This document shows positions 2,255 to 9,132 of a stretch of 11,881 bases of DNA, piece by piece. Within the stretch, counting starts at the first letter, position 1. The number at the start of each line of letters is the position of its first letter. The notes beneath the pieces were generated by a model, which saw nothing but the letters and a program-made list of their open reading frames with translations, ran no database searches and was not told the DNA's origin. The DNA is from a virus (Duplodnaviria > Heunggongvirae > Uroviricota > Caudoviricetes): positions 1 to 11,881 of the IMG/VR virus record IMGVR_UViG_2579778791_000016; one strand, 5' to 3'. The translations under genes and the position numbers were made by a program.

Positions 2255-2692
2255 TCATCGAAGGCATTGCGTCCTAATGTACTCCTGCAAGTAGTTAACC
2301 TGCGCGGTTATCCTGTCGATTCCACTTCGGAGACGGTAATAATTGAGTTCAGCATCTGCTGTAAGTCCTGGGGTTTCTCCATTGCCCATGCCGCTGGCTC
2401 CGGTCGTTGACTTTGCACAGGTGGCGGCGACTTGCAGGCGCTTACGCCCAGCAGAAACATCAGCACGGAGACTTTCGATAGTCGCATTAGCATCAGCAAG
2501 CTCCTTTGTGTATCTGGCGTCAAGTTCTGCTACATCACGTTGCCGCTTCTGCATATCAGCGATGATGGATGTGGCTTTATCGCGCTGCTCTTTGTAGGCG
2601 ATGGCGTTATCACGGTAATGATTAACAGCCCATGAAAGGCAGACGATGAGGCAGATGACCAGAACGTAGATAATCGCGGTTACTCTGCTCAT
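2255..2692 (-). CDS. Rz: Rz i-spanin (inner-membrane spanin subunit)
   Basis: Translation [31 protein letters not shown]...[11 protein letters not shown] is close to lambda Rz as recalled. The start ATG at 2692 overlaps the R stop (ATGA). The ORF-track start at 2704 is four codons upstream. Confidence 0.85.
2308..2493 (-). CDS. Rz1: Rz1 o-spanin lipoprotein, embedded in the +1 frame of Rz
   Basis: [41 protein letters not shown]... has a lipobox plus a proline-rich stretch like lambda Rz1 (VVGCTSK...PPPPPAW). Lies wholly inside Rz in another frame. Start chosen at the ATG at 2493; ATGs at 2487 or 2523 are alternatives. Confidence 0.75.
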
Positions 2693-3186
2693 TGTTGCCC
2701 CCACAAACAGACTTCACGCTCAATCTCACGGCGAGTCATCAGCCCTTTCCATTGCTTACCGCCAGCGTATGTCCAGCGCCGTAGCTGATCACATGCGCCT
2801 TTGATATCGCCCTGGTTTATTTTGCGAAGAAGCGTCGATGTTCTGAAATTGCCAGCGCCCACGTTGTAAACGAACGAGTAAAGAGCGCCGCGCGTTGTTT
2901 CCGGTATATCGACGTTGATGTACGGGTTTATTTGTCTGGCGACCGTGGCAAGGTCTTTATTCAGGAGGGCTTTGCATTCTGCTTCGGTATACGTTTTACC
3001 GGGCATGATGTCTTTTCCGGTGTGTCCGTGACATACAGTCCATACGCCAACGATATCTTCGTATGGTATGTAGCTGACACCTTCCAGGCCATCGTCACCA
3101 CTCGGACCAGTGATGAGCACAGACGCTATGGCAACAGCCCCACCACCAATAGCAGCAGCAACAGCCTTGCGTAATGACGGCGACAT
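2689..3186 (-). CDS. R: SAR endolysin (phage-21-type lysozyme with N-terminal signal-anchor-release domain)
   Basis: [30 protein letters not shown]... has a Gly/Ala-rich SAR helix followed by a lysozyme domain, and is near-identical to phage 21 R as recalled. Start overlaps the S stop (TAATG). Confidence 0.9.
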
Positions 3187-3392
3187 TATTCACCTCTCGC
3201 AGCCTTACGCTTATCTTCTTTAATCTTGAAATAAAGGTTTGTCAGATACGTCAGCAGGCCAAACAGCAGACTCCCCAGCACACCTATTGCCACCCACTGG
3301 GACGGAGAGACTTTGTCCAGCAGCTGCAGTAACCAGTATCCCGTCCCCACCGCTGACGTGGTGTATGACACACCTGTTGTGATTTTTTCCAT
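3186..3392 (-). CDS. S: Pinholin (class II holin, S21-like)
   Basis: [68 protein letters not shown] has two transmembrane segments and a basic C-terminus, closely resembling S21-68. GGAG Shine-Dalgarno 10-14 nt upstream. No in-frame upstream start, so no dual-start antiholin is apparent. Confidence 0.85.
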
Positions 3393-3435
3393 CTGATGTA
3401 TGTCTCCGTCACCGCCGACAGAAAATGAAAGTAAA

Positions 3436-3473
3436 GAAAAACAAAAAAGCCGCCAGTGTCACCCACTGACGGC
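3436..3473 (-). terminator. Intrinsic terminator 44 nt upstream of the holin start codon
   Basis: Minus strand GCCGUCAGUG-GGUGA-CACUGGCGGC (10-bp stem with one U-G pair) followed by UUUUUUGUUUUUCUUU. Confidence 0.6.
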
Positions 3474-3648
3474 CAACGCCGGGAGCCGTGATTATGGCAT
3501 TCAGGCTCTGCTAAAAATGCCAGATAACATTCCGGCCAACCCCTGATTCAGGTTATAAATGACACAATATCTTGACAACATCCGTCACTGTCTGTCAGAA
3601 AATGTACTGCCAAGTATAAGTATCATGTGAAGTACATCTACCCGTTTT

Positions 3649-3684
3649 AGCCAGCGTCCTTCAGAGTGGGCGCTGGCTTTTTTT
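3649..3684 (+). terminator. Plus-strand-specific intrinsic terminator abutting the nanS-p stop codon, antisense to the late operon
   Basis: Plus strand AGCCAGCG-(12-nt loop)-CGCUGGCU followed by UUUUUUUAUUAU. On the minus strand the same hairpin is preceded by an A-run and followed by AAAACGGG, so it should not terminate late transcription. Confidence 0.5.
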
Positions 3685-3685
3685 A

Positions 3686-5536
3686 TTATGCTGCCGGTGC
3701 ATTTATCTCCAGCACCAGACTTTCTATCTCAACACCATACGCTGCATTTTTGGTAATATCCGTCAGCGTCAGCGCATTCAGCCCCAGTGTCAGACTGTCT
3801 TTTATGACCTGGAATGCCGGGCCAGCCACTCCATTCAGTTTCGGAGTAACCGTGGCACTGCCGGCGGTGAACACCAGCTCCAGCGTCTGCCAGTCGTTAC
3901 CGTAATCGCCGAACTCCCCCAGCTTCGTGTTTCCGGCTTTCCTGTGATGCATCAGATTCACTCTGCCGTCAGTGGTCTGAGTGAAGTGCGACATCAGGAA
4001 CGGATTACCGGTACCCGTCATCGCCACACCATCAGGAACGGGAGCGTCCGTATACAGATAAATCCCCAGCCCGAACTGATTGTTGGTCAGTGCGCCTGAG
4101 AGGCGGAACTTACAGGTCAGTCTGCCGCCCTGTGTCAGCAGGGTAATTGCGTCATCCACCGGATGCATCAGGGACCAGGTTTTATTGCTCTGCTTGGTGA
4201 TCTTAAATACACCATCTGACAACTGAATTCCGCCGTCCTTAATGGTCCAGCCCTGCGCAGCAGCATCTCCGGCTGTCGGCATCAGGGAGATTGTGCGTAT
4301 GGATGCATCTTCAGACGGCCCCGATGGCGTGTTGCCGCCGGGCGAGGGTTTGATTTCCGGTGCCTTACCACTGATGAAGGCTGAGGTGCGCCCGGCTGCG
4401 TTCAGAATAGCGGTTGCCAGACGATCCGGAATAATGCTCCTGCGCGCCCATGAACTGAAATGTGTCGGGCGGTTTGATGATACCTGGTTTCCATTCGTTC
4501 TCGATGCCGCACCGTAATATCCTGATGCCGGAATATCCGGATCTTCTGCCGGCGCGTTAGTGGCGGTATTGACGCCGTTACCGTCTGTCATGAAGGGCAC
4601 AAAATAAACGCCCTCACTCTCCCTGTTTTTATACCCGCCGTACACGGTGTCGTACTGGGTAGCGTATGTATTTTTCCAGTAATACGTCGTGTCACCACAA
4701 ACCCACGGCACATCTGCAGCACTGCCACCATGACACTGCGCGTTAAACACAGAGAGGTCAGCACGAAACTGCGTCAGCATGGCTGTAAACAGCGCAGGTT
4801 GCTGTGCGTAGGTGGCGGCGCTCATGTCAAACTCACCCTGCATCCAGCAGACGGCCAGCAGAACGTTTTTGGGATTTTTCTGCAATGCCGCTTTTGTGCG
4901 GGAAATCAGATCCTGATATAACGGCTTGCCCACCCCCCAGCGTGCCGAATCCTGACTGGCCCCCGTGGACTCGCTGAATGTCCCCTCCGCGCCCTGGGTA
5001 AATGCCGAACCACCACGACAGCATGGTACCAGCAGGATCCCCGCGTTATTCGGGATATACGGGAGCAGTTTTTTGGCAATATGTAAACCCTGACCGACAC
5101 AGCCGTACTGCCCTTTGCTCAGGTCAGCCCTCGGATGATTCAGCGTACTCATATCCTGCACATCATGCAGACAGTGGTCAGCCGGAATAATATCGTTATA
5201 TCTGCAGGCAGCCCCGCCCGGCGTCACTGTACTGCGGCGCGCCAGCTGTTTAATGCGCGGATCCGGAGCATCGTATGAATCCGGCAGCGGAAGCCCTTCA
5301 CCGTAAGCCATGGCATTGGACTGCCCGGCCAGTACGATGACGTAGTACCAATCCGGCTCAGATGAAGGGCCGACCTGTGCCTCTCCTTCAATAGCCACCG
5401 CCTGCATCAGTGTGTACGGCGTAATGGCAACCGGTCCGCCGTATGGCTGCCAGCCCTCTTTCAGTTTGTGTGTCAGCTTTTCCGCAAGGTCTGACGGCGA
5501 CGCCGCCCTGACAACATCGTAATGTTTAATCGACAT
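3686..5536 (-). CDS. nanS-p: Prophage sialate 9-O-acetylesterase (NanS-p / YjhS-like; N-terminal DUF1737-like region plus SGNH/SASA esterase domain)
   Basis: 616-aa ORF with ATG at 5536 and GGGAGA Shine-Dalgarno. Contains the SGNH block-I motif VIVLAGQSNAMAYGEG. Sits immediately upstream of the lysis cassette, as the nanS-p genes of Stx and related lambdoid prophages do. Confidence 0.75.
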   Translation of the reverse strand: MSIKHYDVVRAASPSDLAEKLTHKLKEGWQPYGGPVAITPYTLMQAVAIEGEAQVGPSSEPDWYYVIVLAGQSNAMAYGEGLPLPDSYDAPDPRIKQLARRSTVTPGGAACRYNDIIPADHCLHDVQDMSTLNHPRADLSKGQYGCVGQGLHIAKKLLPYIPNNAGILLVPCCRGGSAFTQGAEGTFSESTGASQDSARWGVGKPLYQDLISRTKAALQKNPKNVLLAVCWMQGEFDMSAATYAQQPALFTAMLTQFRADLSVFNAQCHGGSAADVPWVCGDTTYYWKNTYATQYDTVYGGYKNRESEGVYFVPFMTDGNGVNTATNAPAEDPDIPASGYYGAASRTNGNQVSSNRPTHFSSWARRSIIPDRLATAILNAAGRTSAFISGKAPEIKPSPGGNTPSGPSEDASIRTISLMPTAGDAAAQGWTIKDGGIQLSDGVFKITKQSNKTWSLMHPVDDAITLLTQGGRLTCKFRLSGALTNNQFGLGIYLYTDAPVPDGVAMTGTGNPFLMSHFTQTTDGRVNLMHHRKAGNTKLGEFGDYGNDWQTLELVFTAGSATVTPKLNGVAGPAFQVIKDSLTLGLNALTLTDITKNAAYGVEIESLVLEINAPAA

Positions 5537-5620: not shown

Positions 5621-5649
5621 ATAAAAAAAAGGCTGCGCAATGCGCAGCC
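5621..5649 (-). terminator. Strong intrinsic terminator upstream of nanS-p; likely 3' end of the upstream cargo unit
   Basis: Minus strand GGCUGCGCA-UU-GCGCAGCC followed by UUUUUUUUAU. Confidence 0.65.
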
Positions 5650-6078
5650 AGAACTCACAAGGAAAATGATAAAAGGAATAACACTAGTGATGTACGCATG
5701 GCGCCTCCCGCTAAGTTCTGCAATGATCAAACAGAACTCGCTACGTGCCCTTAAAACTCGATCATTTAGCCCCTCCAAGGAGGATTCACCATGCGGTTGA
5801 TTTTTTAATAAACAGTAAACAAAAAAGTCAAGAATTATTCATTCTGTTCTTTCATCATCGGCCACAGCAATACCACAATGCCGCAGACCAGAGCGCCATC
5901 AGTCAGTACCAACATTATCCTGCTGGTGAAATCCATCATCACCATCACTAAAAGCAGGATCACAACAGCAAGCAGACACAGTTTATAAAACAATGTTCAG
6001 AAAACGCATTCAGCATGCCTAAGGTTCTATTCCTACGAATAGCCAACTTGCAACTTAAAATATTATTTATGCAGCCAA

Positions 6079-6795
6079 TTAAATTCTGGTCCTTACAATA
6101 TCAACCTGAAGATTCTTATCTTGTGCTGATTGATAAATGACAAACCTTTTACTACCTGCATTGAAAGAAGTAGACAAAACCAGACAATTATCATAACGAG
6201 CAAGAACATAATACCAACCATCATTATAATTAATCATTTCATATTCTTTCTTAAACTGTGGTTTGTAATATCCTGTCAGAAATGAAAAAAGCCAAAAATA
6301 TGCCACAAAAGCAATCATCACAATCTCAAAAAAATGTTTTTTTATAAATGGCTTATCATAGAAGCATGATACCGATAAAAATCGCCCATAAGATCTTATC
6401 GAAATTGTAACCGCCAGCGCAATCGCTGCTGACAGTAGCAAAAGAGGTACCTGAATCTTCTGTCTCAATATAGAAAACTCAATAATTGCCGGCACAAACA
6501 ATAATTCCACAGCAAAATAAAGGCGAAATACATTTAGCTCTTGCATAGAATGTTTTCTTTTCACTGCGAAAAAGAATACAACACCAATACCCCAACCGAT
6601 AAGAAATATAGCAATGACGATAACTGCAAAAAATAAACTTCTGGCAACATCATCAACACCTGCACCTACAATCCACCATGGGAAGCCGTAGTAAAAAGAA
6701 GTACCCCATCCATAGAAATAAGCACTCCCCCATCCAAGGCATCCCATGTAGGCAATAAAAAGTGAAGAACTCCTGAGCAGCGCACCATCCTTCAT
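6079..6795 (-). CDS. Uncharacterised polytopic membrane protein (about 5 predicted transmembrane helices plus a roughly 65-aa C-terminal soluble domain); AT-rich cargo gene
   Basis: Only long ORF in a markedly AT-rich block (track 6079..6837). Hydrophobic segments include LFIAYMGCLGWGSAYFYGW, LFFAVIVIAIFLIGWGIGVVFFFAV, FRLYFAVELLFVPAIIEF, LLLLSAAIALAVTISI and IVMIAFVAYFWLFSFLTGYY. Probable start is the ATG at 6795 (MKDGALL..., GGGGTGG upstream), because the first ATG at 6837 lies inside a promoter-like -10 element. No recognisable family. Confidence 0.6.
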   Translation of the reverse strand: MKDGALLRSSSLFIAYMGCLGWGSAYFYGWGTSFYYGFPWWIVGAGVDDVARSLFFAVIVIAIFLIGWGIGVVFFFAVKRKHSMQELNVFRLYFAVELLFVPAIIEFSILRQKIQVPLLLLSAAIALAVTISIRSYGRFLSVSCFYDKPFIKKHFFEIVMIAFVAYFWLFSFLTGYYKPQFKKEYEMINYNDGWYYVLARYDNCLVLSTSFNAGSKRFVIYQSAQDKNLQVDIVRTRI

Positions 6796-6832
6796 AACCA
6801 CCCCAATACAAGATGATAACATTGGCTTACAA

Positions 6833-6862
6833 CTCATAACAAAAGCAATTCAATGCCGTCAA
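6833..6862 (-). promoter_or_regulatory. Candidate sigma70 promoter of the membrane-protein cargo gene (TTGACG-N18-TATGAG)
   Basis: -35 TTGACG at 6862..6857, -10 TATGAG at 6838..6833, between the Q-proximal terminator and the gene. Judged by eye only. Confidence 0.3.
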
Positions 6863-6933
6863 GAGGTTACAGGCTAAAAAAACTCTATTACATAGCAGCC
6901 AGCATGTTTACCGTACAAGTACAACTCAGGGCA

Positions 6934-6961
6934 TAAAAAAAACCCACTCGGCAGCGGGTTT
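6934..6961 (-). terminator. Intrinsic terminator about 45 nt downstream of the Q stop codon (candidate tR')
   Basis: Minus strand AAACCCGCU-GCCG-AGUGGGUUU (G-U wobble in stem) followed by eight U. The plus strand also has a partial T-run after the hairpin. Confidence 0.65.
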
Positions 6962-6994
6962 ATACATTTTTTACAACATACCAAATTTGCATGA

Positions 6995-7023
6995 AGTATA
7001 TGGCTTTTAATCCAGTTTTGCAA
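6995..7023 (-). promoter_or_regulatory. Near-consensus sigma70 promoter overlapping the 3' end of Q (candidate late promoter pR' with qut)
   Basis: TTGCAA (7023..7018) - 17 nt - TATACT (7000..6995) on the minus strand. The Q stop codon (7009..7007) lies inside the spacer. A -10-like TGGTATGTT sits in the initial transcribed region. Confidence 0.45.
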
Positions 7024-7696
7024 TATTTTGCTGTAAAAATGCTGCCTTTTGTTTTGAACGTGTTCTCGTCACAAGCAATAAAGCATCACTATCAAGCTGT
7101 AGAAAAATGTGCTTCATTGCAACCCAGCGTTCAGTAAATGTCTCGGACCAGTTTTTTGTTGTCACTCCCACCAATGATGCCAGTGTCTGGTATTCATAGG
7201 CCTCACGCCCTGCAAGTTCGCTCTTCACATCCTGTGCAGCCAGCCAGATTAACGTCTTCAGGCGATCCAGTGTCTTACCTGCAATTTTTCTGTTACTTAA
7301 CAAATCTTTAAACTCGCTCCATGCCCATTGCGTTATGGTGACCTGATGCCCCCATCGAACGCTTTCGCTGTAACACCAAAGCAACCATGCTTTCTGATGT
7401 TCATCGAGAGACAAAACCGCGCGGCGCCATGAAGAGGTTGAGAATTCAACCGGGCTGACCAAAGCAATGGATGAACCTTTTGCGTACGACTGCTTACCGG
7501 AAGTCGGCGTATTATCCCGCGTAATCATCTTGCCAGTTACCACATCCAGAATGCGCGGCTTCTTTCGTTTGTATGTACCAGTATCAAATTGTGCATGCTC
7601 CTGCCAGGCTTCGAGCTGGCCTTTCGTTGCTCCGTTCAAGTCAGCAGTAGCTGCCATAAGTTGCTCACGAACATACTGTAAATATTGGGTATTCAT
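7007..7696 (-). CDS. Q: Q-like late antiterminator (long-form Q family, about 230-250 aa)
   Basis: Positioned after ninI and before the late/lysis genes, with a promoter and terminator at its 3' end. Start taken at the ATG at 7696 (MNTQYLQYVREQ..., AGGA Shine-Dalgarno 8 nt upstream) rather than the track start at 7780. Family assignment rests on context and size, not on recognised motifs. Confidence 0.5.
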   Translation of the reverse strand: MNTQYLQYVREQLMAATADLNGATKGQLEAWQEHAQFDTGTYKRKKPRILDVVTGKMITRDNTPTSGKQSYAKGSSIALVSPVEFSTSSWRRAVLSLDEHQKAWLLWCYSESVRWGHQVTITQWAWSEFKDLLSNRKIAGKTLDRLKTLIWLAAQDVKSELAGREAYEYQTLASLVGVTTKNWSETFTERWVAMKHIFLQLDSDALLLVTRTRSKQKAAFLQQNIAKLD

Positions 7697-8172
7697 GCAG
7701 TAAATCCTTTCTATATTTTGGCATAATTCTTCAACATTCGGTAATCGTTCAAAACCGAATCGGGGAAACGACATAAGCACAGGAGCCCCCAGCGACAGCG
7801 AAGGAGTTCTGATATATAAGACTCAGACATCATTCATTCCCCGGTTCTCCAATATCTGTTTCACTCATCATCCATAACTACCTGTAATTGCCCCCCCTTT
7901 TTTTGTAACAGTTCTTATATTGCTATATAGAATAGCCATTACTAATGCATTTAAATTTAATAAAATAAAAATTATAAAAAAACATAAAACACCACGCAAA
8001 CACACTTAATAAAAACACCGTTACATTAAAAGATAATAAAAACCACAATAAAAAACAAATAAATCAATTGTCTCACGCAATTATAAAACATCATATTGAT
8101 TACGCACCTTGTATTACAAACTCATGTATGTAAAATACGCGCACCATTCAAAAAAAAGGAAGACAATAACAT

Positions 8173-9132
8173 ATGAAAAAAAGTGTCATCGCTGGCGTCT
8201 TTATTGCTCTGTCATTTACCACGTGTTCAGCTATCGCGAACAGCCTTGCATTATCATTAGCAAATGATGATGCAGGGAAGTTTCAACCAATACTTAATGA
8301 TATTTATGGCAATAAACATGAAAACAGAGATGATTACTCACAAGGCTTATTTCTGGGATATAGCCACGATATCTCAGACTCGAGCCAATTATCTCTCCAT
8401 ATTGCGCAAGATATTTACTCTCCATCAGGCAGTAATAAAAGACACAACACAGCCGTAACTGGAGACAGAGCTTTTAGTGCATACACTCACACTGGTATTG
8501 AATGGAACTCCCTTGCGAATGACTGGATTCGCTATCGATTAGGTACTGACATAGGTGTTGTTGGCCCCGACGCAGGCGGTCAGAAAGTACAAAATAAAGC
8601 TCATGAGATTATTGGGGCAGAAAAATATCATGCATGGGATGATCAAATAGAGAATCGCTACGGTTATACTGTAAAAGGGATGCTATCCATGACACCAAGT
8701 ATGGATATTTTAGGTGCTAATGTTGGATTATACCCTGAAGTTTCTGCTGTTACTGGAAACTTATTTCAATATGTAGCATATGGCGCAACCATTGCCATTG
8801 GTAATGATAAAACCTTCAATTCGGATAATGGCTTTGGTCTGCTGGCTCCCCGTGGTTTAATGCATATGTCCGATACAAGCGGATTCAAATACAAGATTTT
8901 TGCAGGTATGGAAAGACGAGATGTCAATCGCAACTATACTCTCGAAGGAAAAACAATACAGACGAAACAAACAACAGTATCGCTAAACAAAACTGTTGAT
9001 GAATATCAAGTTGGCGCAACAATTGGGTATGCACCTGTAGCCTTCACACTAGCATTTAATAAAGTAACATCAGAATTCAAGACAGGGGATGACTATTCAT
9101 TTATAAATGGAGCAATCACCTTCTTTTTTTAA
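8173..9132 (+). CDS. lpxR: Outer-membrane beta-barrel protein, probably lipid A 3'-O-deacylase LpxR family
   Basis: Signal peptide MKKSVIAGVFIALSFTTCSAIA, predicted mature size 296 aa (the size I recall for mature LpxR), C-terminal aromatic beta-barrel signature ...GAITFFF, AAGGAAG Shine-Dalgarno. AT-rich gene with a long AT-rich upstream region, opposite in orientation to the flanking phage genes. Confidence 0.55.
   Translation: MKKSVIAGVFIALSFTTCSAIANSLALSLANDDAGKFQPILNDIYGNKHENRDDYSQGLFLGYSHDISDSSQLSLHIAQDIYSPSGSNKRHNTAVTGDRAFSAYTHTGIEWNSLANDWIRYRLGTDIGVVGPDAGGQKVQNKAHEIIGAEKYHAWDDQIENRYGYTVKGMLSMTPSMDILGANVGLYPEVSAVTGNLFQYVAYGATIAIGNDKTFNSDNGFGLLAPRGLMHMSDTSGFKYKIFAGMERRDVNRNYTLEGKTIQTKQTTVSLNKTVDEYQVGATIGYAPVAFTLAFNKVTSEFKTGDDYSFINGAITFFF

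Follow-up and report, generated by a model that had tools for sequence, protein, structure and literature searches.

The late genes of a lambdoid prophage occupy the minus strand across the window, by which we mean the whole stretch of 11,881 nucleotides that was analyzed. The antiterminator gene Q (7007-7780, minus strand) is followed by a segment running from 5794 to 5623 on the minus strand that is 100% identical to the small RNA PasD2. Next comes a sialate O-acetylesterase gene of the nanS-p type (3686-5536, minus strand), coding for 616 amino acids with the Pfam domains DUF1737, SASA and DUF6645. Its stop codon is the complement of 3686-3688. The lysis cassette starts with a class II holin gene S (3186-3392, minus strand, assigned by Pfam) and continues with lysozyme (2689-3186, minus strand) and Rz (2255-2704, minus strand); the holin, lysozyme and Rz genes are all intact. 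A gap of 293 nt separates the esterase stop from the holin start, and the hairpin described here is located within it. A plus-strand open reading frame of 48 amino acids at 3400-3546, annotated in phage 2B8, overlaps a late-strand terminator; as it found no other support, it was discarded as a source of plus-strand transcription.

Folding, a terminator scan and a cross-locus comparison defined the hairpin, on the plus strand, as an 11-bp stem with an 8-nt loop at 3649-3678. The initial annotation had located it properly, with an end one base short at 3677. The 5' arm AGCCAGCGTCC (3649-3659) and the 3' arm GGGCGCTGGCT (3668-3678) enclose the loop TTCAGAGT (3660-3667), and of the 11 stem pairs, 8 are G-C, 2 are A-T and one is the T3657.G3670 wobble. 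A T-run on the plus strand covers 3678-3684, is followed by ATTA, and ends two bases from the esterase stop codon of the opposite strand. Among 19 terminator-like sites in the window, where shuffled sequences led us to expect 10.4 +/- 3.4, this hairpin ranked top. For the plus-strand RNA of 3622-3690 the folding energy is -23.3 kcal/mol (z = -3.65), a value that none of 200 shuffled sequences reached. A promoter-like match reported by the promoter scan at 3660-3689 (TTCAGA-18-TATTAT) lies inside the terminator and was regarded as a chance match.

In a bidirectional terminator, each strand would have a U-tract following the stem. Here the late strand has a C.A mismatch in place of the T3657.G3670 wobble, its z-score is only -1.8, and AAAACGGG instead of a U-tract comes after the stem. 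The terminator is for these reasons one-directional and acts on the plus strand only. Stem, T-run and late-strand asymmetry thus bear out the first reading of the sequence, which had proposed a plus-strand-only intrinsic terminator beside the nanS-p stop codon. The same reading had named a function as late-strand RNA stability element as the outcome that would speak against it. The inverted repeat does fold on the minus strand too, immediately after the stop codon, where it could serve as a 3'-end stabilizer or processing site of the esterase mRNA. However, the mismatch, the low z-score and the missing U-tract on that strand all argue against such a role, and both the conserved T-run and the experimentally detected RNA (see below) belong to the plus strand, which makes it extremely improbable.

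An alignment of window positions 3441-3720 with the pasC locus of the EPEC strain E2348/69 (PP5) yielded 100% identity. PasC is a small RNA of lambdoid prophages in pathogenic E. coli described by Pearl Mizrahi et al. (2021, PMC8550237), with the same sequence, site, antisense orientation and terminator as found in the window. PMC8550237 Table S6 gives its ends as 1290909 and 1290832 of NC_011601 (minus strand), and the identical alignment places these at 3607 (5' end) and 3684 (3' end) of the window. Located on the plus strand at 3607-3684, and assigned by the mapped ends and the probe, PasC is 78 nt long by its coordinates and was published as 79 nt. Window positions 3632-3656 are matched exactly, in reverse complement, by the PasC Northern probe CGCTGGCTAAAACGGGTAGATGTAC. 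RIL-seq fragments of PasC end at 1290831/1290832 (PMC8550237 Table S3, mapped here), corresponding to 3685/3684 and coinciding exactly with the T-run. A small plus-strand RNA ending near 3684, as had been anticipated from the sequence, has therefore already been observed by RNA-Seq, Northern blot and RIL-seq on the identical E2348/69 sequence, with ends at 3684/3685 (PMC8550237).

Besides the full-length match to PasC of E2348/69, the window provides the expected site, on the opposite strand between a sialate esterase gene and a holin/lysozyme cassette of a lambdoid prophage. A recent preprint described the gene order PasD, sialate esterase, PasA or PasC, followed by holin and lysozyme (10.64898/2026.05.13.724894). 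The order in the window, i.e. Q, the PasD2-identical small RNA, the SASA esterase, PasC, holin, lysozyme and Rz, agrees with it, and with LpxR and Q also present the published arrangement is complete. In PP5 of E2348/69 the holin side is broken by ISEc13, in contrast to the intact lysis genes of the window. Taken together, hairpin and T-run very probably constitute the Rho-independent terminator of pasC, a small RNA gene of approximately 78 nt opposite the Q-dependent late operon. The element is already published as PasC; it is an unannotated known gene and nothing new in kind. Searching the entire window against Rfam (E <= 1) gave no match, including at 3580-3690; evidently PasA and PasC are without an Rfam family. 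The annotation gap comprises Rfam 15, RefSeq/PGAP and the phage annotations examined, in all of which pasC is unmarked, and a reader of the sequence alone therefore rediscovers its terminator as an "orphan".

The mapped 5' end at 3607 also allowed us to evaluate the promoter elements upstream. The TTGACA hexamer on the plus strand, which the initial annotation had misplaced by 9 bases at 3581-3586, is found at 3572-3577. There it occupies -35 to -30 relative to 3607, which makes it the better candidate for the -35 hexamer of the pasC promoter, from position and conservation alike; almost every PasA/PasC locus retains the hexamer, as does the second module of PasA loci. Transcription of pasC would accordingly begin about 30 nt downstream of TTGACA. 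A second suggestion, CTGTCA-N17-TATAAG, had been positioned correctly (3592-3597 and 3615-3620). As a promoter it had to be rejected, because TATAAG falls within the mapped RNA 3607-3684. The very short antisense RNA that had been envisaged exists, with a length of approximately 78-79 nt (3607-3684) instead of the ~58 nt implied by that promoter.

The sequence holds no canonical -10 hexamer at the right distance from TTGACA, and the promoter scan reported no sigma-70-like site at its threshold on the plus strand of 3560-3625. Reading of the A-rich stretch at 3595-3603 (plus strand) yielded the sole -10 candidates. TCAGAA (3595-3600) has the right spacing of 17 bp and would be the -12 to -7 hexamer, with a consensus match of 2/6, while GAAAAT (3598-3603) matches the consensus at 4/6 positions but requires a 20-bp spacer. 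A comparison of the module 1 and module 2 promoters (see below) likewise found no common sigma-70 -10 hexamer with canonical spacing. We found no published mapping of the transcription start site of pasC; the preprint 10.64898/2026.05.13.724894 contains no discussion of a promoter and suggests processing for PasA. By coverage-based estimates, PasC and the EcOnc52 peak each begin four bases past the AAAAT of their own module, and this placement suggests a shared architecture.

PasA and PasC were described as variants of common origin (Zhu, Shabalina & Storz, 10.64898/2026.05.13.724894). PasA, a paralog of PasC found in PP2 of E2348/69 as well as in phages 434, H-19B and Stx1 phages, has the upstream region in common with window positions 3441-3611; the differences are an indel of one base and a single substitution near 3538-3539, and 3540-3611, including TTGACA, is completely identical. 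Both RNAs carry the block GUGAAGUACAUCUA and the base of the terminator stem, and they differ at about nt 7-17, in the inner stem and in the loop. Two forms of the locus became visible in the alignment, one with two tandem modules and one, as in the window, with a single module. Each module of the tandem form consists of TTGACA, CTGTCTGT, a stretch rich in A and a hairpin with T7; PasA loci thereby possess a second TTGACA...hairpin-T7 module of 154 nt before the esterase stop, in contrast to the single module of PasC. The PasA probe matches the module 1 hairpin of phage 434 and of PP2 of E2348/69, and a minor PasA species of 236 nt ends at the second terminator beside the stop codon (743264, one base inside the end of the coding sequence). 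The manually curated record of phage 434 lists two terminators on the same strand here, one of them adjoining the esterase stop. In the single module of the window the 5' part resembles module 1, while the terminator and the 3' flank resemble module 2. From this sequence comparison, PasC looks like the 5' part of PasA fused to the terminator of the second module.

Further antisense RNAs bound by Hfq are known from the same site in EHEC. EcOnc51 and EcOnc52 were named as PasA homologs (PMC8550237 Table S6), and both were reported as Hfq-CRAC peaks of strain Sakai, EcOnc52 at 1181998-1182075 on the minus strand (Tree et al., 2014, PMC4104026 Table S2), where no Northern result is listed for either RNA. 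EcOnc52 (Sp4) adjoins the stop of the esterase gene ECs_1088 in antisense orientation like PasC, and EcOnc51 (Sp12) corresponds to the first module of the PasA type; both are sequence variants and not PasC. AgvB and AsxR (RF02702, RF02703), the sponges of GcvB and FnrS, are also short (51-60 nt) Hfq-binding prophage RNAs, antisense to the late operon and downstream of pR'. However, they are located upstream of the esterase gene, convergent with an STnc100/PasD-type small RNA, and the 3' domain conserved among them, GUAUCUCAUGC...GCCCGAACCCAYUCGGGC, bears no relation to PasC. Alignments of the published AgvB, AsxR and EcOnc03 sequences with PasC gave nothing beyond a chance AGUAUC..AUG. Membership in the AgvB/AsxR family was dismissed, since the 3' domain of ~42 nt is lacking, neither RF02702 nor RF02703 matched at E <= 1, and site and sequence differ.

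For an estimate of conservation, 43 PasC-type and 53 PasA-type loci were compiled from the window, from loci in phages and genomes, and from IMG/VR contigs fetched by a fixed 17-mer, a retrieval that biases the sample towards conservation of that block. The body of PasC was conserved in the 43 loci apart from nt 7-8 and three singletons; among the variants, a stem wobble is once replaced by a Watson-Crick pair, and the loop is altered once. All 43 PasC-type loci carry a T-run of 6-7 T, preceded by CC in the 6-T run of phage 2B8. Seven basal stem pairs are invariant across the PasC, PasA, PasA-2-like and module 2 hairpins, and the inner pairs vary. Stem pair 8 shows a compensatory switch between G-C and A-U across PasC, PasA and second-module hairpins, at a diversity too low for a strong covariation test. 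Of 5426 complete E. coli genomes, 208 contain the full-length PasC-type sequence. The intergenic region as such was found in 699 of the 5426, with a median of four copies, as well as in 28 phage records, among them phages 434, H-19B, 2B8 and Stx1a phages.

In all loci examined the terminator adjoins the esterase stop codon, and in PasA loci the equivalent terminator is the one that ends the minor 236-nt read-through species. Both observations would fit an insulator or backstop whose sole task is to stop antisense transcription from the lysis side short of the esterase gene, the RNA thereby released being without function. Against this stand the conservation of the RNA body in the 43 loci and the properties of the released RNA, which is abundant, stabilized by Hfq and ligated to specific partners with a common complementary motif. 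We consider a pure insulator very unlikely. Protection against antisense read-through into the esterase gene is a genuine side effect, though a secondary one; as a by-product of termination, plus-strand transcription would be kept from entering the esterase gene in antisense direction. Beyond the antisense or insulator role originally proposed, PasC, which does not overlap the esterase coding sequence, is documented as an Hfq-bound, trans-acting small RNA.

The documented behavior of PasC is that of a trans-acting, Hfq-bound small RNA with many partner mRNAs. In E2348/69, from the identical sequence, it was seen by RNA-Seq and Northern blot at ~79 nt (PMC8550237). The hfq deletion lowered its abundance under activating condition (log2 fold change of -2.13, adjusted p-value of 0.015; PMC8550237 Table S2). 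A total of 31 interactions with 1728 chimeric fragments were recorded on Hfq (PMC8550237 Table S5), with PasC mostly as the 3' partner (PMC8550237). Partner RNAs originate both in the core genome and in virulence loci (PMC8550237); they include bfpB, eae-cesT, pflB, yfiD, espD, escJ, rpsE and lpp as well as galE, fabZ, wzxE, spr, the rne 5' UTR, mazF and zapG (PMC8550237 Table S3). The stem and the U-tail may both stop RNA polymerase and provide the Hfq-binding 3' module, with the U-tract at the 3' end (3679-3684, plus strand) as the presumed site for the proximal face of Hfq, in line with the conserved T-run and the RIL-seq ends. The function of PasC was stated to be not elucidated (Zhu, Shabalina & Storz, 2026, 10.64898/2026.05.13.724894), and we found no published regulatory outcome for any of its targets.

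The pairing region of PasC was approached with the regions of the ten RIL-seq partners of highest odds ratio, picked before their sequences were inspected. Using 12-nt windows of PasC, complementarity to these partners above shuffled-target controls peaked at nt 24-40 (z down to -5.9). This segment, AAGUACAUCUACCCGUU (3630-3646, plus strand), is unpaired and lies just 5' of the hairpin, and it is the seed predicted by our computation. As a 17-nt probe it reached a mean of -14.9 kcal/mol on the ten partners compared to -10.4 kcal/mol on 388 natural control segments (Mann-Whitney p = 6e-5). The 5' arm of the terminator showed no enrichment among the ten partners (p = 0.9). The predicted target sites have a GGGUAG(A/G)UGU(U)AC-like motif in common, and the five checked by coordinates (wzxE, dinD IGR, mazF, yhcM-yhcB and pflB) map to the RIL-seq fragment ranges or immediately 3' of them. 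In pflB and zapG/yhcB, the Shine-Dalgarno sequence and the AUG fall within the predicted site, and pairing of nt 24-40 with these targets would be predicted to repress translation. Short complementarity to multiple mRNAs, as required of a trans-acting small RNA, was thus found by computation only, and it is weak for bfpB (-11.0 kcal/mol) and eae-cesT (-8.2 kcal/mol), which stay at background level (control mean of -10.4 kcal/mol). The bfpB and eae-cesT regions are the two most abundant PasC partners, with a low odds ratio. The published PasA seed overlaps the terminator arm, and by analogy to PasA, Zhu et al. inferred a PasC seed different from ours, overlapping the terminator arm (10.64898/2026.05.13.724894). 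The layout thus predicted for PasC, an unpaired seed followed by terminator and U-tail, is canonical for an Hfq-dependent small RNA.

PasC is transcribed from the plus strand between two late genes of the minus strand and is fully complementary to the late transcript there. It might act also, or even mainly, in cis, on the stretch of the Q-antiterminated late transcript between the esterase and holin genes. Upon induction, a duplex of 78 bp between PasC and the late mRNA might be cut by RNase III and might uncouple the expression of the esterase and the lysis genes, or the late transcript might sponge PasC; convergent transcription could further interfere with either promoter. Such contacts find some precedent in PasA, which RIL-seq captured together with the 3' ends of the two esterase mRNAs, E2348C_0688 and E2348C_1246 (PMC8550237 Table S7), and late-strand RNA of the same intergenic region was found on Hfq (pasA.E2348C_0689.IGR; PMC8550237). 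For PasC itself, however, no esterase or holin RNA is among the partners in Table S3 (PMC8550237), and its detection was made in uninduced lysogens, with late transcription being low. We regard this cis action on the late transcript as unlikely. With slightly more weight, and still as tentative proposals, we put forward that PasC may in addition act in cis, by tuning or delaying the lysis genes, by affecting the fate of the esterase mRNA on induction or by being titrated by the late transcript, and, separately, that the real seed may be AAGUACAUCUACCCGUU rather than the terminator arm.

What the window adds to the published trans-acting PasC is a pasC gene beside an intact lysis cassette and a PasD2-identical small RNA, with little further biology. 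The partners of PasC on Hfq include mRNAs of the type III secretion system (T3SS), of bfp, pflB and rne and of ribosomal proteins. PasC belongs to the set of prophage-borne small RNAs that tie lambdoid and Stx-type prophages to the regulatory networks of their hosts.

PasA-type loci carry, between PasA and the esterase stop codon, an extra module of 154 nt, consisting of TTGACA, CTGTCTGTGAAAAAT, a hairpin and T7. This second module was found in phage 434 (L001, 2520-2689), in prophage PP2 of the EPEC strain E2348/69 (L005, 2766-3000) and in Sakai Sp12 (L109). By alignment, PasC looks like the 5' part of PasA joined to the terminator of the second module, and the junction appears as if a deletion had occurred between TTTKAGCCAGC repeats. 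In Sakai Sp4, where the second module alone is left beside an IS629 element, the position of this module coincides with that of the Hfq-CRAC peak EcOnc52 (Tree et al., 2014, PMC4104026). The PasA terminator was found broken by insertion sequences after ...GTCAGTGCT in two IMG/VR contigs (L046 and L090). Zhu et al. (2026, 10.64898/2026.05.13.724894) mention a variant without terminator, "PasA-3", which is probably accounted for by these interruptions.

On the minus strand, immediately upstream of the esterase gene, positions 5623-5794 are 100% identical to the 172-nt sRNA PasD2 of E2348/69; its terminator hairpin lies at 5649..5631 (-). Rfam assigned STnc100 to this stretch with 41.4 bits, which is below the gathering score of 47. 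Further upstream, a sigma-70-like promoter (TTGCAA-17-TATACT, 7023..6995, minus strand) overlaps the 3' end of the antiterminator gene Q; after it come a terminator at 6961..6940 (-) and a weak match to STnc240. The region 6931-7023 (-) looks like the pR'-tR' short leader of lambdoid phages, an RNA of the lambda 6S / StxS type. Between this region and PasD2, a 252-aa ORF (6079-6837, minus strand) gave no match in the Pfam comparison. A homologue of the lipid A deacylase LpxR (8173-9132, plus strand) lies as a moron between ninG/phosphatase and Q, in opposite orientation to the phage genes; LpxR is named among the conserved neighbours of PasD in the Pas preprint (10.64898/2026.05.13.724894).

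On the late strand, a strong intrinsic terminator of 11 pairs followed by TTTTTGTTTT was located at 3448-3474 (-). The holin gene begins 55 nt downstream of it, and its counterpart in the phage 434 record carries a terminator annotation. A 48-aa ORF on the plus strand (3400-3546), a hypothetical protein in the phage 2B8 annotation, is probably not a gene, since it overlaps this terminator and has no support beyond that annotation. RIL-seq recovered a late-strand RNA of the intergenic region that holds the terminator on Hfq, as pasA.E2348C_0689.IGR (PMC8550237). The late-strand terminator would halt non-antiterminated transcription ahead of the lysis genes.
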